Virus record (IMG/VR): IMGVR_UViG_2663763286_000020
Span: 1-5,281 of that record
Source of the DNA: a virus
Lineage: Duplodnaviria; Heunggongvirae; Uroviricota; Caudoviricetes
Strand: one strand, 5' to 3'
DNA: 5,281 bases
The notes below the pieces were generated by a model. That model was not told where the DNA came from. It saw only the letters and a program-made list of their open reading frames with translations, and did not search any database. Positions 1-5,281 of the stretch are shown here, in pieces; positions within the stretch are counted from its first letter, which is position 1, and each line of letters starts with the position of its first letter. The translations under genes were made by a program, and so were the position numbers.

Positions 1-3
1 CTG

Positions 4-807
4 GTGGTTGTTCAGAATCAGTCTGATGAAATTCCCGTTCTGGAATGGCAGGGAGTGCGTGTAGTGACAACTAAGATCCTTGCTAAGGGGTATGGGACAG
101 ATGCGGATAACATCAAGAAGAACTTTTCCCGTAATGCTGAACGTTTTTGTGAAGGCAAGCATTTCTATAAAGTTATTGGAGATGATTTGAACAATTTGCG
201 GGTGACTTTAAGTAACTCACAAAATCCTATCTCTCCTAAAGCCCGCTCACTCATCCTCTGGACGGAACGCGGCGCAGCCCGCCACGCTAAAATGCTCGAA
301 ACCGATCAGGCATGGGCATTCTTTGAAAAACTGGAAGACAGCTACTTCCGGCAAAAAGAACAGCAACCGGTTGCAATCCCCCAGACGCTTCCAGAAGCTC
401 TGCGCCTGGCTGCCGAACTGGCTGAACAAAAGCAGCTTCTGGAACAGAAAGCCCACCAGCTAAATCAGCAGCTGGTGGCCGCCGCTCCTAAAGTCGATTT
501 TGCCGACCGGGTATCAGTAGCTAAAGGGATCCTGATTGGGAATTTTGCAAAGGTTGTTGGACTTAAGCAAAACGCGCTGTTTGTCTGGTTACGGGAGAAC
601 GGCATCCTGATAGCGTCCGGTGGACGTAAAAATGTGCCGTTCCAGCAGTACATCAACGCGGGGTATTTCACGGTGAAAGAAGTGGTGCTGGATGATGAAG
701 ATGGCTACCAGATACGGTTGACGCCTCAATTAACGGGTAAAGGCCAGCAGTGGTTGACGCGTAAACTGCTCGATGCTGGCTTGTTAAAACCGGTGGCGGC
801 TGAATAA
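4..807 (+). CDS. Antirepressor-family protein, left paralog: N-terminal ORF6N/KilA-N-like module plus C-terminal KilAC-like antirepressor domain. The frame is open from base 1, so the start may be GTG at 4 or lie upstream of the window.
   Basis: 267-codon ORF ending TAA 805-807. N-terminal motifs (LAKGYGTD..NIKKNFSRNAERFCEGKHFYKV..LWTERGAARHAKML..AWAFFEKLEDSYF) and C-terminal motifs (LPEALRLAAE..KGILIGNFAKVVGL..GILIASGGRKNVPFQQYINAGYFTVKEV) fit that architecture by recall, not by a database hit. Bases 1-3 are CTG where the right-hand paralog has ATG. Confidence 0.8.
   Translation: MVVQNQSDEIPVLEWQGVRVVTTKILAKGYGTDADNIKKNFSRNAERFCEGKHFYKVIGDDLNNLRVTLSNSQNPISPKARSLILWTERGAARHAKMLETDQAWAFFEKLEDSYFRQKEQQPVAIPQTLPEALRLAAELAEQKQLLEQKAHQLNQQLVAAAPKVDFADRVSVAKGILIGNFAKVVGLKQNALFVWLRENGILIASGGRKNVPFQQYINAGYFTVKEVVLDDEDGYQIRLTPQLTGKGQQWLTRKLLDAGLLKPVAAE
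256..807. repeat. Left arm of a long inverted repeat (3' about 550 bp of the antirepressor-like gene); partner is about 4478-5029.
   Basis: Spot comparison of segments 241-540 with the reverse complement of 4741-5050 shows 0-4 substitutions per 60 nt (about 95-97% identity), mostly synonymous. Boundaries are approximate; no full alignment was computed. Confidence 0.8.
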
Positions 808-814
808 TGGAAGA

Positions 815-836
815 ATGCCCGGTTGATGCCGGGCAT
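815..836. terminator. Candidate bidirectional intrinsic terminator between the convergent antirepressor-like gene and c1.
   Basis: Perfect hairpin ATGCCCGG-ttgatg-CCGGGCAT (8-bp GC-rich stem, 6-nt loop), 8 nt after the TAA of the plus ORF and 3 nt before the c1 stop. It is followed by AATTTATT on the plus strand; the U-tract is only moderate in both directions. Confidence 0.5.
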
Positions 837-839
837 AAT

Positions 840-1691
840 TTATTGCGCGCTTTCGGGGTTGTCGTTTACTGGCTGCCCCTTCTTGGTTTTACGGCTGCGC
901 GTAACTGATGCGGCTGATTTGACCTTTTTCTCTTCGCGAGTGATGGCAATTTGTTTTTTTACATTTTCAATATCTGCCAGGCGATATATTTTTGCCTGCG
1001 GCCAGCGGTCGCAGATGATCGGTTCTATAGAGTCATAAAGGCTAAATTTTGCTTTCTCGAATTCACCGTTGATGATGATTCCATCACGGAGAGTTTCATC
1101 GCAGATAAACACACCACACAGCGGCACATGGTAACTAACTGATTTACCATCATTGTAGTTAGGGCTACTAGAAATGTAATGGACGCGCAGCATTGTTTCG
1201 CTAAAGCCGTGTACGCGCATACGGAATTTTTCATCCTCCGGGTACTGCTTCATTAGCTCTTTTGTTGCTTCCAGGTTCTCTATGTATTTCGCACTGTGCT
1301 CATTGATCCCCGCGCTTTTTTGGATGCGAATGTCCTTATCAATCAGATGAATAATGCGGCCAGCGGTCATGTTGACGCTGTTCACAGCTTCTGTCTGATA
1401 AGTTGTAACCTTACGCACACCGCGAAGGGTGTTAGGCACTGGATATAAAATAGTCTTTGGGATATTGAGGTCTGGGTACTGTTCCAGTTCCCGCGCCATT
1501 AAAGTCCATTTATCAATTTCAGCCTGAATGCTGTCAGTTTCTTTGAACGGTAGAACGACAACCGGGCGTACAGGACGACCGTCGCTGGCTGTATCAACGT
1601 GTTGGGCGCGTGCAACAGCTTTTTTTAGAAAGAGATCCCTGAAGCTGACGAACTCCTGGTACAGTTGTTCGCCGTAGACATAATTTATCAT
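840..1691 (-). CDS. c1: C1 immunity repressor of phage P1 type.
   Basis: 283-aa product MINYVYGEQLYQEFVSFRDLFLKK... matches recalled P1 C1 in length and sequence. ATG at 1689-1691 (complement) is preceded by a strong SD GGAGGAGG with 4-nt spacing; stop TAA at 840-842 (complement). Confidence 0.95.
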   Translation of the reverse strand: MINYVYGEQLYQEFVSFRDLFLKKAVARAQHVDTASDGRPVRPVVVLPFKETDSIQAEIDKWTLMARELEQYPDLNIPKTILYPVPNTLRGVRKVTTYQTEAVNSVNMTAGRIIHLIDKDIRIQKSAGINEHSAKYIENLEATKELMKQYPEDEKFRMRVHGFSETMLRVHYISSSPNYNDGKSVSYHVPLCGVFICDETLRDGIIINGEFEKAKFSLYDSIEPIICDRWPQAKIYRLADIENVKKQIAITREEKKVKSAASVTRSRKTKKGQPVNDNPESAQ

Positions 1692-1758: not shown

Positions 1759-1802
1759 ATTATAGAAGGATCCAACGAAAATAATAGATTTATTAGTGCA
1801 TT
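1759..1802 (-). promoter_or_regulatory. Candidate c1-proximal promoter with a C1 operator-like site at the -35 position.
   Basis: A perfect TATAAT on the minus strand (complement of 1759-1764). 22 bp upstream, at 1786-1802, the minus-strand sequence AATGCACTAATAAATCT matches 14/17 of the P1 C1 operator consensus ATTGCTCTAATAAATTT. The site overlaps the coi stop codon. Confidence 0.45.
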
Positions 1803-2011
1803 TATTGTGAGTCTGGCTGGTTAGTGGCCATGAGATATTCGATTGTGTCAGTGAGATCATCCAGGTCGTCTTGGGTGATGCGGTACTCCTGATTGGATAT
1901 CTTTGAGTAGTGTTCAGCAATGGCGCGGGCAGCGTCGGTTTCGGCGGGGTCTACAGATAAAGCGTTAGAGCAATGTCTAACGTCGTCGATGGTTGGTGGA
2001 ATGAAAGCCAT
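1802..2011 (-). CDS. coi: Coi-like C1 inactivator, a small acidic protein co-oriented with and upstream of c1.
   Basis: 69-aa ORF MAFIPPTIDDVRHCSNALSVDPAETDAARAIAEHYSK... in the position and of the size of P1 coi. ATG at 2009-2011 (complement). Assigned by synteny and size; the sequence was not verified against a database. Confidence 0.8.
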   Translation of the reverse strand: MAFIPPTIDDVRHCSNALSVDPAETDAARAIAEHYSKISNQEYRITQDDLDDLTDTIEYLMATNQPDSQ

Positions 2012-2349: not shown

Positions 2350-2392
2350 TGATTTTTATGCGTAGCTGGACGTAAACTCCTCTTCAGACCTA

Positions 2393-2426
2393 ATAACTTC
2401 GTATAGCATACATTATACGAAGTTAT
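2393..2426. other. loxP: loxP site-specific recombination site (Cre target).
   Basis: ATAACTTCGTATA-GCATACAT-TATACGAAGTTAT: perfect 13-bp inverted repeats around the asymmetric 8-bp spacer. This is an exact match to wild-type loxP (spacer reads ATGTATGC on the other strand). Confidence 0.97.
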
Positions 2427-2615: not shown

Positions 2616-2837
2616 ATGGGATATTCAGCTGCTAAAGTGTCCACTCATATTGAGCTTGAGAAAAACCGTGGTTACTGGCGGGCAAAAGGGTTTGATCGTG
2701 ATAGTTGTCAACTGTCATTATCGCGCGGTGAAGAGAAAATAGAACGCACGCGCGGTCGCTGGCGTTTCTATGACGAGAACCATAAACAGGTAAAGGCAGA
2801 GCCGATCCTGTACACTTTACTTAAAACCATTATCTGA
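2616..2837 (+). CDS. Small basic hypothetical protein (73 aa) immediately upstream of cre, probably co-transcribed with it.
   Basis: ATG at 2616 is preceded by a good SD AGAGGTGA. The product is R/K-rich (MGYSAAKVSTHIELEKNRGYWRAKGFDRD...). Stop TGA 2835-2837 lies 7 nt before the cre ATG. Function not recognised. Confidence 0.5.
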   Translation: MGYSAAKVSTHIELEKNRGYWRAKGFDRDSCQLSLSRGEEKIERTRGRWRFYDENHKQVKAEPILYTLLKTII

Positions 2838-2844
2838 GTGTTAA

Positions 2845-3876
2845 ATGTCCAATTTACTGACCGTACACCAAAATTTGCCTGCATTACCGGTCGATGCAAC
2901 GAGTGATGAGGTTCGCAAGAACCTGATGGACATGTTCAGGGATCGCCAGGCGTTTTCTGAGCATACCTGGAAAATGCTTCTGTCCGTTTGCCGGTCGTGG
3001 GCGGCATGGTGCAAGTTGAATAACCGGAAGTGGTTTCCCGCAGAACCTGAAGATGTTCGCGATTATCTTCTATATCTTCAGGCGCGCGGTCTGGCAGTGA
3101 AAACTATCCAGCAACATTTGGGCCAGCTAAATATGCTTCATCGTCGGTCCGGTCTGCCACGACCAAGTGACAGCAATGCTGTTTCACTGGTCATGCGACG
3201 GATCCGAAAAGAAAACGTTGATGCCGGTGAGCGTGCAAAACAGGCGCTGGCGTTCGAACGCACTGATTTCGACCAGGTTCGTTCACTCATGGAAAATAGC
3301 GATCGCTGCCAGGATATACGTAATCTGGCATTTCTGGGGATTGCTTATAACACCCTGTTACGTATAGCCGAAATTTCCAGGATCAGGGTTAAAGATATCT
3401 CACGTACTGACGGTGGGAGAATGTTAATCCATATTGGCAGAACGAAAACGCTGGTTAGCACCGCTGGTGTAGAGAAGGCACTTAGCCTGGGGGTAACTAA
3501 ACTGGTTGAGCGATGGATTTCTGTCTCTGGTGTAGCTGATGATCCGAATAACTACCTGTTTTGCCGCGTCAGAAAAAATGGTGTTGCCGCGCCATCATCC
3601 ACCAGCCAGCTATCAACTCGCGCCCTGGAAGGGATTTTTGAAGCAACTCACCGATTGATTTACGGGGCAAAAGATGACTCTGGTCAGCGATACCTGGCCT
3701 GGTCTGGACATAGTGCCCGTGTCGGTGCCGCGCGAGATATGGCCCGCGCCGGAGTTTCAATACCGGAGATCATGCAAGCTGGTGGCTGGACCAACGTAAA
3801 TATTGTCATGAACTACATTCGTAACCTGGATAGTGAAACAGGGGCAATGGTGCGCCTGCTGGAAGATGGCGATTAG
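2845..3876 (+). CDS. cre: Cre tyrosine site-specific recombinase (P1 type).
   Basis: 343-aa product MSNLLTVHQNLPALPVDATSDEVRKNLMDMFRDRQAFSEHTWKMLL...GWTNVNIVMNYIRNLDSETGAMVRLLEDGD recognised as P1 Cre. Its cognate loxP lies 418 bp upstream. Confidence 0.98.
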   Translation: MSNLLTVHQNLPALPVDATSDEVRKNLMDMFRDRQAFSEHTWKMLLSVCRSWAAWCKLNNRKWFPAEPEDVRDYLLYLQARGLAVKTIQQHLGQLNMLHRRSGLPRPSDSNAVSLVMRRIRKENVDAGERAKQALAFERTDFDQVRSLMENSDRCQDIRNLAFLGIAYNTLLRIAEISRIRVKDISRTDGGRMLIHIGRTKTLVSTAGVEKALSLGVTKLVERWISVSGVADDPNNYLFCRVRKNGVAAPSSTSQLSTRALEGIFEATHRLIYGAKDDSGQRYLAWSGHSARVGAARDMARAGVSIPEIMQAGGWTNVNIVMNYIRNLDSETGAMVRLLEDGD

Positions 3877-3893
3877 CCATTAACGCGTAAATT

Positions 3894-3910
3894 ATTGCTC
3901 TAATTCATTG
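3894..3910 (+). promoter_or_regulatory. C1 operator-like site between cre and the downstream small ORF (position of P1 Op2-type operators).
   Basis: ATTGCTCTAATTCATTG matches 14/17 of the consensus, with the first 11 positions perfect. Confidence 0.45.
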
Positions 3911-3926
3911 ATATTTATGGTGACAT

Positions 3927-4238
3927 ATGAGAAAGGATTTCAACATCGACGGAAAATATGTAGTGCTGTCTGTAAGCACTAATATTCAGTCGCCAGCCGT
4001 CATTGTCACTGTAAAGCTGAGCGATAGAATGCCTGATATTGACTCAATATCCGTTGCGTTCCCTGTCAAAAGTATGCGTGGTGCTGAACATTTCGTGATT
4101 AACGCCTCCGAGGAAGAAGCACGGCGCGGTTTTGCTAAAGTGATGTCTGAGTTTGGCGAATTTTTGTGGCACGTTGACAAAGCCCTCTCAATCAGTTCAG
4201 CAAGGTCCAAAGCGTTAACAGCTTCCATGATGAAATAA
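3927..4238 (+). CDS. Hypothetical 103-aa protein downstream of cre, in the position occupied by cra in P1. The sequence itself is not recognised.
   Basis: ATG 3927 with a weak SD (GGTGA, short spacing). Residue composition looks protein-like (..SEEEARRGFAKVMSEFGEFLWHVDKALS..). An operator-like site lies 17 bp upstream. Preferred over the overlapping minus-strand ORF 3986-4318, which contains a terminator hairpin. Confidence 0.5.
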   Translation: MRKDFNIDGKYVVLSVSTNIQSPAVIVTVKLSDRMPDIDSISVAFPVKSMRGAEHFVINASEEEARRGFAKVMSEFGEFLWHVDKALSISSARSKALTASMMK

Positions 4239-4368: not shown

Positions 4369-4412
4369 ATTGCTATAATTAATTGTTATAATTGAGTTGT
4401 GGCTTTAGTCAA
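4369..4412 (-). promoter_or_regulatory. Promoter island with a C1 operator-like site: minus-strand promoter TTGACT-16-TATAAC, plus two plus-strand TATAAT boxes.
   Basis: Minus strand: -35 TTGACT (complement of 4407-4412), 16-nt spacer, -10 TATAAC (complement of 4385-4390). ATTGCTATAATTAATTG (4369-4385) matches 14/17 of the operator consensus and overlaps the -10 and predicted start. Plus-strand TATAAT at 4374-4379 and 4387-4392. Confidence 0.45.
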
Positions 4413-4451: not shown

Positions 4452-4475
4452 GGCGGCCGAAAGGCCGCCTTTTTT
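4452..4475 (+). terminator. Rho-independent terminator for plus-strand transcripts, at the inner edge of the right inverted-repeat arm.
   Basis: GGCGGCC-gaaa-GGCCGCC, a perfect 7-bp GC stem with a GNRA-type tetraloop, followed by six T (4470-4475). It lies 2 nt from the stop codon of the convergent minus-strand gene. Confidence 0.8.
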
Positions 4476-4477
4476 AA

Positions 4478-5029
4478 TCATTCAGCCGCCACCGGTTTTA
4501 ACAAGCCAGCATCGAGCAGTTTACGCGTCAACCACTGTTGGCCTTTCCCCGTTAATTGAGGCGTCAGCCGTATCTGATAGCCATCTTCATCATCCAGCAC
4601 CACTTCTTTCACTGTGAAATATCCGGCGTTTATGTACTGCTGAAACGGTACATTTTTACGTCCGCCGGACGCAATCAGGATGCCGTTCTCCCGTAACCAG
4701 GCAAACAGCGCATTTTGCTTAAGTCCAACAACCTTTGCAAAATTCCCAATCAGGATCCCCTTAGCCACTGATACCCGGTCGGCAAAATCGACCTTAGGGG
4801 CGGCGGCCACCAGCTGCTGATTTAGCTGGTGGGCTTTCTGTTCCAGAAGTTGCTTTTGTTCAGCCAGCTCGGCAGCCAGGCGCAGAGCTTCGGGAAGCGT
4901 CTGAGGGATTGCGACCGGTTGCTGTTCTTTTTGCCGGAAGTAGCTGTCTTCCAGTTTTTCAAAGAATGCCCATGCCTGATCGGTTTCGATCATTTTAGCG
5001 TGGCGGGCTGCGCCGCGTTCCGTCCAGAG
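4478..5029. repeat. Right arm of the long inverted repeat (partner of about 256-807).
   Basis: Reverse complement of 4741-5050 aligns colinearly with 241-540 at high identity (see left arm). Boundary is approximate. Confidence 0.8.
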
Positions 5030-5281
5030 AGTGAGGTTTCTGGCGTTCTTACCAACAGAGTTACTAAAAGTAACTCTGTTCTTAAATTCCTTTAATTTTG
5101 AACCAGTTAAAAGAAAGTAGTGTTTACCTTCTTCAAAGCGATCGGAGTTGCAAGACAAATTTTTACGAATATTGCCTTCATCGGTTCCGTACCCCTTAGC
5201 AAGAGTTTCGGTTGTTACGACACGTACTCCCTGCCATTCCAGAACGGGAATTTCATCAGACTGATTCTGAACAACCACCAT
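4478..5281 (-). CDS. Antirepressor-family protein, right paralog (ORF6N/KilA-N-like N-terminus plus KilAC-like C-terminus), inverted relative to the left copy.
   Basis: 267-aa ORF starting with ATG at 5279-5281 (complement), exactly at the window edge, with stop TGA at 4478-4480 (complement). The C-terminal ~180 residues differ from the left copy at only 2 positions. N-terminal motifs RFEEGKHYFLLTGSKLKEFKN and LWTERGAARHAKMI are typical of this domain family. Confidence 0.85.
   Translation of the reverse strand: MVVVQNQSDEIPVLEWQGVRVVTTETLAKGYGTDEGNIRKNLSCNSDRFEEGKHYFLLTGSKLKEFKNRVTFSNSVGKNARNLTLWTERGAARHAKMIETDQAWAFFEKLEDSYFRQKEQQPVAIPQTLPEALRLAAELAEQKQLLEQKAHQLNQQLVAAAPKVDFADRVSVAKGILIGNFAKVVGLKQNALFAWLRENGILIASGGRKNVPFQQYINAGYFTVKEVVLDDEDGYQIRLTPQLTGKGQQWLTRKLLDAGLLKPVAAE

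Follow-up and report, generated by a model that had tools for sequence, protein, structure and literature searches.

The window analysed here, that is, the whole stretch of 5,281 nucleotides (nt) from IMG/VR record IMGVR_UViG_2663763286_000020, covers the immC-loxP-cre core of a P1-like plasmid prophage. Its c1, coi, loxP, cra, cre and c8-like gene show 96–97% DNA identity to P1, P7 and relatives. At both ends of the window lies an inward-pointing open reading frame (ORF) in which Pfam places an ORF6N domain ahead of a KilAC/ANT domain. These two paralogs, which belong to the antirepressor (ant) family of P1, bracket c1-coi-loxP-cra-cre-c8 in inverted orientation, with the window holding the 3' three-quarters of each gene. 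The block in which they diverge is very probably a mid-protein cassette that is exchanged by recombination. The features of the two genes, in window positions, are:

1..807, + strand: left (c1-side) ant1/ant2-like gene, 3' 268 codons and stop, cassette allele C (ORF listing; Pfam ORF6N and KilAC; full-length genes in relatives; phrog_63 'anti-repressor Ant' end to end)
37..294, + strand: left ORF6N domain (PF10543), residues 12–97 of the 267-amino-acid ORF (Pfam score 68.6 bits, cut-off 27.8)
57..261, + strand: left variable cassette (allele C), codons 19–87, about residues 122–190 of the full protein (60% nt identity to the right copy; diversity island; allele typing; predicted secondary structure; G+C content)
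250..348, + strand: conserved 3' junction SLILWTERGAARHAKMLETDQAWAFFEKLED, a likely recombination joint (nt identity to ant of Shiga toxin (Stx) phage P27 and to Yersinia phages)
466..771, + strand: left KilAC/ANT domain (PF03374), conserved arm (Pfam score 108.4 bits, cut-off 25.3; nt identity to P1 ant1/2 of 86.6% at nt 457–791)
4478..5281, − strand: right (c8-side) ant1/ant2-like gene, 3' 267 codons and stop, cassette allele E (ORF listing; Pfam ORF6N, 71.6 bits, and KilAC, 113.9 bits, with the same cut-offs; full-length homologs in relatives)
4514..4819, − strand: right KilAC/ANT domain, residues 155–256 (Pfam)
5024..5227, − strand: right variable cassette, allele E (codon alignment; allele typing)

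Codon-aware alignment of the left and right copies, with positions given in left-copy window numbering, separates three segments. Codons 2–18 (nt 4–54) are identical at 51 of 51 nt and the first difference after position 1 is nt 57, which confirms the identity over nt 2–56 claimed in an earlier reading made from the letters of the window (hereafter, the sequence-only reading). Over codons 19–87 (nt 55–261) only 116 of 192 aligned nt are identical (60.4%) and amino acid identity is 55%, with two indels (+2 and −3 codons), a non-synonymous divergence (dN) of 0.335 and saturated synonymous sites (proportion of synonymous differences, pS, 0.82). The sequence-only reading had correctly located this drop and quoted the right peptide strings for it, but its value of about 70% identity was too high. 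Codons 88–268 (nt 262–804) return to 95.6% identity (525 of 549 nt), with 22 synonymous and just two non-synonymous changes (L101I and V197A), as had been described for an arm of about 550 nt at 95–97%. In this arm the synonymous divergence (dS) is 0.19 and dN/dS is 0.025; two or fewer non-synonymous changes out of 24 would be expected under neutrality with P = 2.8e-12, in line with the proposed purifying selection on both copies. The divergence is far from uniform, with a two-breakpoint maximum chi-square of 211 versus a maximum of 36 in 200 permutations. Likewise, G+C content is 0.39–0.41 in the variable blocks (0.41 in the left one; window 58–255 and 5024–5227) versus 0.53 in the conserved arms, and this compositional step coincides with the recombination boundaries.

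The 55-nt start shared by both copies is explained by its being the commonest haplotype in the population; the 56-nt start of the window is also present in 15 copies carrying another cassette (allele A, see below). The window ends (1–3 and 5279–5281) correspond to the same codon, 104, of the two ant genes. This codon is ATG in the right copy (5281–5279) but CTG in the left one; the ATG is therefore no conserved or real start, and looks like one only by the chance placement of the window end. Two ends that cut a multi-copy repeat at one and the same codon, and that are perfectly reverse-complementary over 55 nt, could point to an assembly collapse at a repeat or to a chimeric contig. Such an artefact is extremely improbable, because the ends have a natural haplotype and the window is collinear with complete circular plasmids, the closest being Escherichia albertii pEA24_3 (100% coverage, 97.7% identity) and E. 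coli pO26_98E11_1 (97% coverage, 99.0% identity). The same arrangement, at a coverage of at least 80%, occurs in 242 PLSDB plasmids and, among 5,426 complete E. coli genomes, in 260. In all, ~2,300 copies are present across 779 E. coli genomes.

In close relatives, the full ant genes encode about 371 amino acids and start 309 nt beyond each window end. The window cuts both ORFs, and the divergent segment, considered N-terminal in the sequence-only reading, is instead a mid-protein block (about residues 122–190 of 371). The full-length protein of a relative (P0001, 99% identical to the left copy) is matched by phrog_63 over residues 1–371 (E 4e-133), and the same family matches P1 Ant1 (E 3e-91), with both proteins covered end to end; NCBIfam had no model for the ant proteins and a sequence search of the PDB gave no match for them. 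P1 Ant2 starts at codon 84 of Ant1 (..EAHRM..), and the family shows no variation in this M84 or in the AAGGAGG Shine-Dalgarno sequence, which lies within the codons for RKEA; the conserved Ant2 start is located 20 codons beyond the window. In relatives at 97.7–99% identity, each ant is the last gene of a module comprising the C4 antisense RNA, icd and ant, in the overall order pacB-C4-icd-ant-c1...cre-c8-ant-icd-C4. The stop of the icd-like gene overlaps the ant start and C4 lies 55 nt upstream of the icd-like gene. The Rfam C4 model (RF01695) scored 72–77 bits (gathering score 45) upstream of both copies and in 19 of 20 further c1-side modules scanned; the window itself gave no Rfam match, the C4 RNAs lying outside it.

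We then compared ant genes across the population, using 79 IMG/VR loci plus annotated plasmids, from which 76 alignable copies were extracted. The block occurs as nine discrete types, seven of them ORF6N-like (A–F and I), with 44–82% amino acid identity to one another, and two unrelated and P1-Ant-like (G and H), which show only 8–19% amino acid identity to the ORF6N types. Nucleotide identity of the block is 99% within types and 64% between types, on backbones that are 96–99.8% identical across types. The window carries allele C in the left copy and allele E in the right copy; blocks at 95% identity or more were found in 50 PLSDB records for allele C and in 12 for allele E. Among 46 unique c1-side orthologs, nucleotide diversity is 0.27–0.37 at window nt ~106–261 versus 0.01–0.05 in most of the flanks; the same block thus forms a population-wide island of diversity, at window nt ~76–261. 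The closest allele pairs have a dS of 0.45–0.9, and dN/dS inside the block is 0.07–0.38 for related pairs, indicating that the alleles are old and individually constrained.

These discrete alleles on near-identical backbones rule out local divergence as the source of the block. Judging from the alignments, the pattern arose as cassettes were swapped by homologous recombination while the backbone stayed nearly constant, and the exchange would proceed through the conserved flanks. Allele D is itself chimeric, with 91% identity to A over codons 34–58 and 83% to C over codons 59–87. The same alleles are found at the c1-side, c8-side, near-dnaB and other positions, and the block allele shows no linkage with the 13 C4 sequence types about 0.8 kb upstream. 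The C-terminal arm, in turn, tracks genomic position and not the block allele: in c1-side copies with allele A, B, C, D or F it is 98–99.8% identical to that of the left copy of the window, and in c8-side E copies it is 99–100% identical to that of the right copy. The N-terminal arm is not structured by position, with a mean identity of 0.960 both within and between positions. The sequence-only reading had suggested segmental recombination or gene conversion; the recombinational origin is borne out by the discrete alleles and the diversity island, but conversion between these two paralogs is rejected, since their C-terminal arms are about 95% identical to each other versus 99–100% to same-position copies elsewhere.

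The pool of cassettes extends beyond P1-like elements. Homologs of the ORF6N module, at 50–71% amino acid identity, were retrieved from 352 phage records, mostly lambdoid Stx phages. The 3' flank of the cassette is about 90% identical in DNA to the ant gene of the lambdoid Stx phage P27, whose identity to allele C is 83–92% over window nt 181–348 and random after nt 349; Yersinia phages show 85% nt identity over window nt 249–348. Because identity to P27 ant turns random exactly where the C-terminal domains differ, the junction (…LWTERGAARHAKMLETDQAWAFFEKLED) looks like a cross-family recombination joint, and from these comparisons the ORF6N cassette and the KilAC arm look as if they circulate independently.

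Two further mechanisms were also considered. A diversity-generating retroelement, whose substitutions would be specific to adenines, is rejected: it does not fit with the 76 mismatches of the block, which involve all bases (A 19, C 18, G 17 and T 22 in the left copy) and fall 46 times at third codon positions, and there is no reverse transcriptase among the window ORFs, all of which are accounted for. An invertible or shufflon-type switch, comparable to the Cin C-segment of P1, would produce a second orientation across the inverted repeats of about 1.3 kb; none of 52 pacB-linked loci had c8/cre beside the pacB-side ant.

Two rearranged ant copies were found in locus L067 (3001–4451) and in L073 (3001–4935; IMGVR_UViG_2698536372_000019), L numbers being our handles for loci. 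In one case, an ant truncated at residue 245 is directly followed by a second partial copy from residue ~30 and, in the other, a second icd-ant start comes after a truncated ant. Unequal recombination between modules looks like the origin of such copies.

The block falls within the Pfam ORF6N domain, matched in both copies over profile positions 3–86 of 86, in agreement with the proposal of the sequence-only reading that the variation lies in a recognition-type module. A domain-only AlphaFold model, for which one of five models was confident (mean predicted local distance difference test score, pLDDT, 80.5; predicted template modelling score 0.71), gives the order b1-b2-a1-a2-b3-a3-loop-b4-a4-a5. 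The full-length model was poor (mean pLDDT 50), and its best Foldseek matches in the PDB were SKI/Dachshund domains, at E≈0.1. Across the seven ORF6N alleles, b1, b2, a1, a4 and a5 are conserved, and variation lies in a2, b3, a3 and the indel-bearing loop, with the invariant positions of a2 at i and i+3. We infer from the model a winged-helix-like fold, in which a conserved scaffold would hold a variable recognition helix and wing.

This distribution bears on a competing explanation, namely neutral mosaicism, by which a tolerated and equivalent domain was imported several times from diverged phages and the alleles persist by drift and hitch-hiking without differences in specificity. Exchange through conserved linkers is normal for genes of temperate phages, ORF6N modules occur in many phage backgrounds, and dN/dS is below 1 in the block for every related allele pair, the same picture that neutrality predicts; it also agrees with a C1 repressor that is invariant whatever the allele (see below). 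However, the block has sharp boundaries within the domain, the core elements b1, b2, a1, a4 and a5 are untouched, and variation concentrates on the putative recognition helix and wing loop. Furthermore, there are many discrete alleles at low to intermediate frequency (C in 50 and E in 12 of about 745 plasmids), and every sampled multi-module genome carries different alleles, four of them in pO26_98E11_1, although this last pattern is not statistically significant. On balance, we regard neutral mosaicism as rather unlikely, though as the likeliest of the alternatives.

The location of the left copy directly beside c1 raises the question of its relation to the repressor of the phage itself. The remaining features of the window, which include c1 and the rest of the immC-loxP-cre core, are:

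815..836, + strand: terminator-like hairpin between the convergent left ant and c1 (terminator scan)
840..1691, − strand: c1 primary repressor, 283 amino acids (96.5–97% DNA identity to the P1/P7 immC region, annotated c1)
1802..2011, − strand: coi, C1 inactivator, 69 amino acids (annotation in RCS47, P7 and phiW39)
2393..2426, no strand: loxP site ATAACTTCGTATAGCATACATTATACGAAGTTAT (sequence read directly; loxP annotation in P1 record X03453)
2616..2837, + strand: cra, 73 amino acids (annotation in P1 and P7 records)
2845..3876, + strand: cre recombinase, 343 amino acids (annotation in P1 and P7 records)
3927..4238, + strand: c8-like lysogeny-establishment gene, 103 amino acids (annotated c8 or 'lysogeny establishment protein' in relatives; phrog_1968 match)
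4452..4469, + strand: intrinsic terminator between c8 and the convergent right ant, GGCGGCC-GAAA-GGCCGCC followed by T6 (terminator scan)

In P1, Ant1/Ant2 inactivates C1 (reviewed in PMC8546580), and the adjacency of the left copy to c1 would suit a block that tunes recognition of the phage's own C1 and co-evolves with it. Nevertheless, 52 c1-side loci contained only nine C1 protein variants, differing by one to three residues in all but one case, and the block allele showed no linkage with them. The commonest C1, identical over its 283 amino acids, adjoins Ant alleles A, B, C, D, F and I, and the unrelated P1-type and ORF6N-type middle domains fill the same slot beside the same C1. Co-evolution with C1 is hence very unlikely, and the repressor specificity contemplated in the sequence-only reading is disfavoured as far as the phage's own repressor is concerned. 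A C1 that stays the same whatever the allele is compatible with binding by Ant as well as with its absence, but it makes another target for the variable face more likely, unless the variation there is functionally neutral. Candidate targets would be the repressors or the DNA of other co-resident or competing elements.

Other observations concern this same core. Five C1-operator-like sites match ATTGCTCTAATAAATTT with up to three mismatches (0.05 expected by chance), at window 1786–1802, 2250–2266, 2333–2349, 3894–3910 and 4369–4385; one of them is in the interval separating c8 from the right ant gene's end, a place at which P1 has ref and not an ant module. The loxP region (window 2384–2426) also has matches at 95–100% in records of unrelated phages, Lactococcus phage Q33 (in a 'portal protein') and Cronobacter phage JK004, which are possibly engineering or cloning remnants.

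One plasmid can hold several ant modules. Plasmid pO26_98E11_1 (NZ_AP027182.1) contains four icd-ant modules, every one of them preceded by a C4 RNA of its own; they are located at the canonical immI beside kilA-repL, near dnaB and, for the other two, flanking immC (L085 13640–14904; L086 20030–21282; L003 5474–6804 and 10475–11805). All four Ant middle domains differ, and so do all four combinations of C4 loops. Additional ant or icd-ant copies, in the pacB-c1 interval and on the downstream side of c8, have been mentioned for RCS47, pTZ20_1P and pSvP1 (PMC6906374) and for D6-like phages (PMC6799933); in the literature, we found no analysis of the mosaic structure of these extra copies.

Co-residence of different alleles might also be explained by insulation between paralogs, if divergent middle domains stopped the cross-assembly of Ant1 and Ant2 among two to four co-resident copies, or broke the inverted repeat of about 1.3 kb and so limited inversion or rearrangement of immC-cre. 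P1 Ant acts as an Ant1/Ant2 heterodimer (PMC8546580), all the multi-module genomes examined carried different alleles and no pacB...c8 inversion was seen in the 52 loci. Yet the lack of a repeated allele in about 11 genomes, a sample of low power, has P≈0.16 under random assortment, which is not significant, and is confounded by position-specific allele frequencies, and the roughly 550 nt of 95–97% identity remaining at each side of the block are ample for RecA. Insulation would, moreover, leave unexplained the sharing of the same alleles with lambdoid phages, and we consider it highly improbable.

The C4 RNAs were typed with the Rfam model and fixed-offset extraction; typing by BLAST was dropped, having missed many variants. 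C4 sits about 360–272 nt upstream of the ant1 start in loci L003–L084 (for example, L003 5332–5419 and 11853–11938). In the 13 sequence types, the two loop elements occur in varied combinations (for example, CCTTTTGC or CCTTTGAC together with either GTCTCAAC or GTTCCAAC), suggesting a population with many immI immunity specificities. Just upstream of C4, there is an Rfam match to isrK (RF01394; 56–63 bits) at L003 5230–5307 and, with an equal offset, in 19 other c1-side loci; at the equivalent place in P1 and in the c8-side modules, the match is instead to c4-a1b1 (RF03163).

Two further observations concern the neighbourhood of the c8-side modules. The hypothetical gene upstream of the c8-side type of module appears in two orientations and at two distances from ant (~1045–1683, + strand, in L038, L045, L059 and L021; ~1877–1239, − strand, in L015, L022 and L023), suggesting that the region outside the window was locally inverted or exists in an alternative arrangement. 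Additionally, L003 contains a gene of the SIR2 family together with a type III restriction-modification system (13098–17278) just beyond the c8-side module, a flank that looks like a defence-gene hotspot.

Taken as a whole, we favour the reading that the ant genes carry an allelic mid-protein cassette, exchanged by recombination, whose ORF6N module sets the partner of the protein, and we assign it a probability of about 0.6. Each module would be held off by its own C4 RNA, as in P1 immI, and, once expressed, would produce Icd and an Ant1/Ant2 complex, following the model described for P1 (PMC8546580). The constant Ant1-specific N-terminal arm and the KilAC domain would carry a generic activity, and the swappable ORF6N module would determine which partner, protein or DNA, is engaged. 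The function of the cassette as a specificity module is the tentative part of this reading; argued from the architecture and by analogy with AriS (see below), it is possible, at somewhat less than even odds.

Several points weigh against this interpretation. For the window itself, the C4 RNA, icd and the N-terminal arm of Ant1 lie beyond its ends, and we infer them from relatives at 97.7–99% identity. The only biochemically characterised member of the family, P1 Ant, has a middle domain that is not ORF6N, and the antirepressor role of the ORF6N versions is predicted from the homology of their arms to those of P1 Ant. Binding by the ORF6N module, and functional differences among alleles, are putative. 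Lastly, a dN/dS below 1 in every related allele pair means that the block bears no signature of diversifying selection.

A bolder extension of the cassette reading would be a multi-locus system of combinatorial immunity and counter-immunity, with two to four C4-icd-ant modules per genome, C4-loop and ORF6N specificities assorting independently, a cassette pool shared with lambdoid phages and Ant alleles hitting the repressors or DNA of different co-resident or competing prophages. This is speculative and rather improbable; were it true, the modules would constitute a programmable cross-induction arsenal and not redundant copies of one antirepressor.

The window genes belong to a known family (P1 Ant; ORF6N plus KilAC), whose members are routinely annotated as antirepressors. 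As in the immI of P1 and P7, the order c4-icd-ant1/ant2 is kept in relatives of the window, and the Ant1-specific N-terminal arm and the KilAC arm of P1 Ant are, respectively, about 50% and 71–86% identical to those of the window family. Unlike P1 Ant1 and types G and H, which have no ORF6N match, the window proteins have ORF6N as middle domain. Also unlike in P1, the window modules are additional copies, in the pacB-c1 interval and downstream of c8, inverted around immC-loxP-cre and beyond the canonical immI at kilA-repL, and relatives contain up to four modules per plasmid.

A comparable architecture, with a conserved C-terminal ANT/KilAC domain and a variable N-module, is found in the AriS-like KilAC regulators of prophages from Listeria and other Firmicutes, dual-function proteins in which KilAC exerts a generic, host-directed activity and inhibits the SOS response of the host, whereas the alternating N-domain is phage-specific (Azulay et al. 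2022, PMC9043618); the likeness is one of architecture only. There, alternation is between Pfam families (AntA/B, Bro-N, pRha) across phages, whereas the window family comprises mostly diverged alleles of a single family, ORF6N, within one population and even one genome, and has the additional Ant1-specific N-terminal arm. The function of both the ORF6N and KilAC domains has been described as unclear (PMC9043618).

Closer in sequence, the Ant protein of vB_EcoS_P27 has an ORF6N domain with about 71% amino acid identity to allele C, and 83–92% nt identity over the second sub-block and the junction, and P27 Roi carries a KilAC domain with 60% identity to that of the window. In P27, however, these modules are on separate proteins (Ant, with ORF6N and P22_AR_C; Roi, with pRha and KilAC), encoded in the nin region and without C4/icd control.

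KilA-N, Bro-N and ORF6N were reportedly proposed by Iyer, Koonin and Aravind in 2002 (cited in PMC9043618), for regulators of DNA viruses, as predicted DNA-binding N-modules that recombine with C-modules such as KilAC. That shuffling is deep in evolutionary terms, whereas the window case is a shallow allelic series at the population level, with mapped breakpoints and chimeras below the domain scale. Shuffling of N-modules onto KilAC is an established theme, and what we describe is ordinary recombinational mosaicism of phage genes. The novelty lies in having a clean allelic series for a population, its breakpoints mapped, which is useful for experiments, if unsurprising.

If the cassette sets partner specificity, this would be a natural series for mapping target choice by KilAC-type antirepressors, with at least nine middle domains on near-identical proteins, present in about 5–14% of complete E. 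coli genomes. It would then also matter for the interplay of P1-like phage-plasmids, which often carry resistance genes in E. coli and E. albertii, with Stx prophages and others in the same cell.

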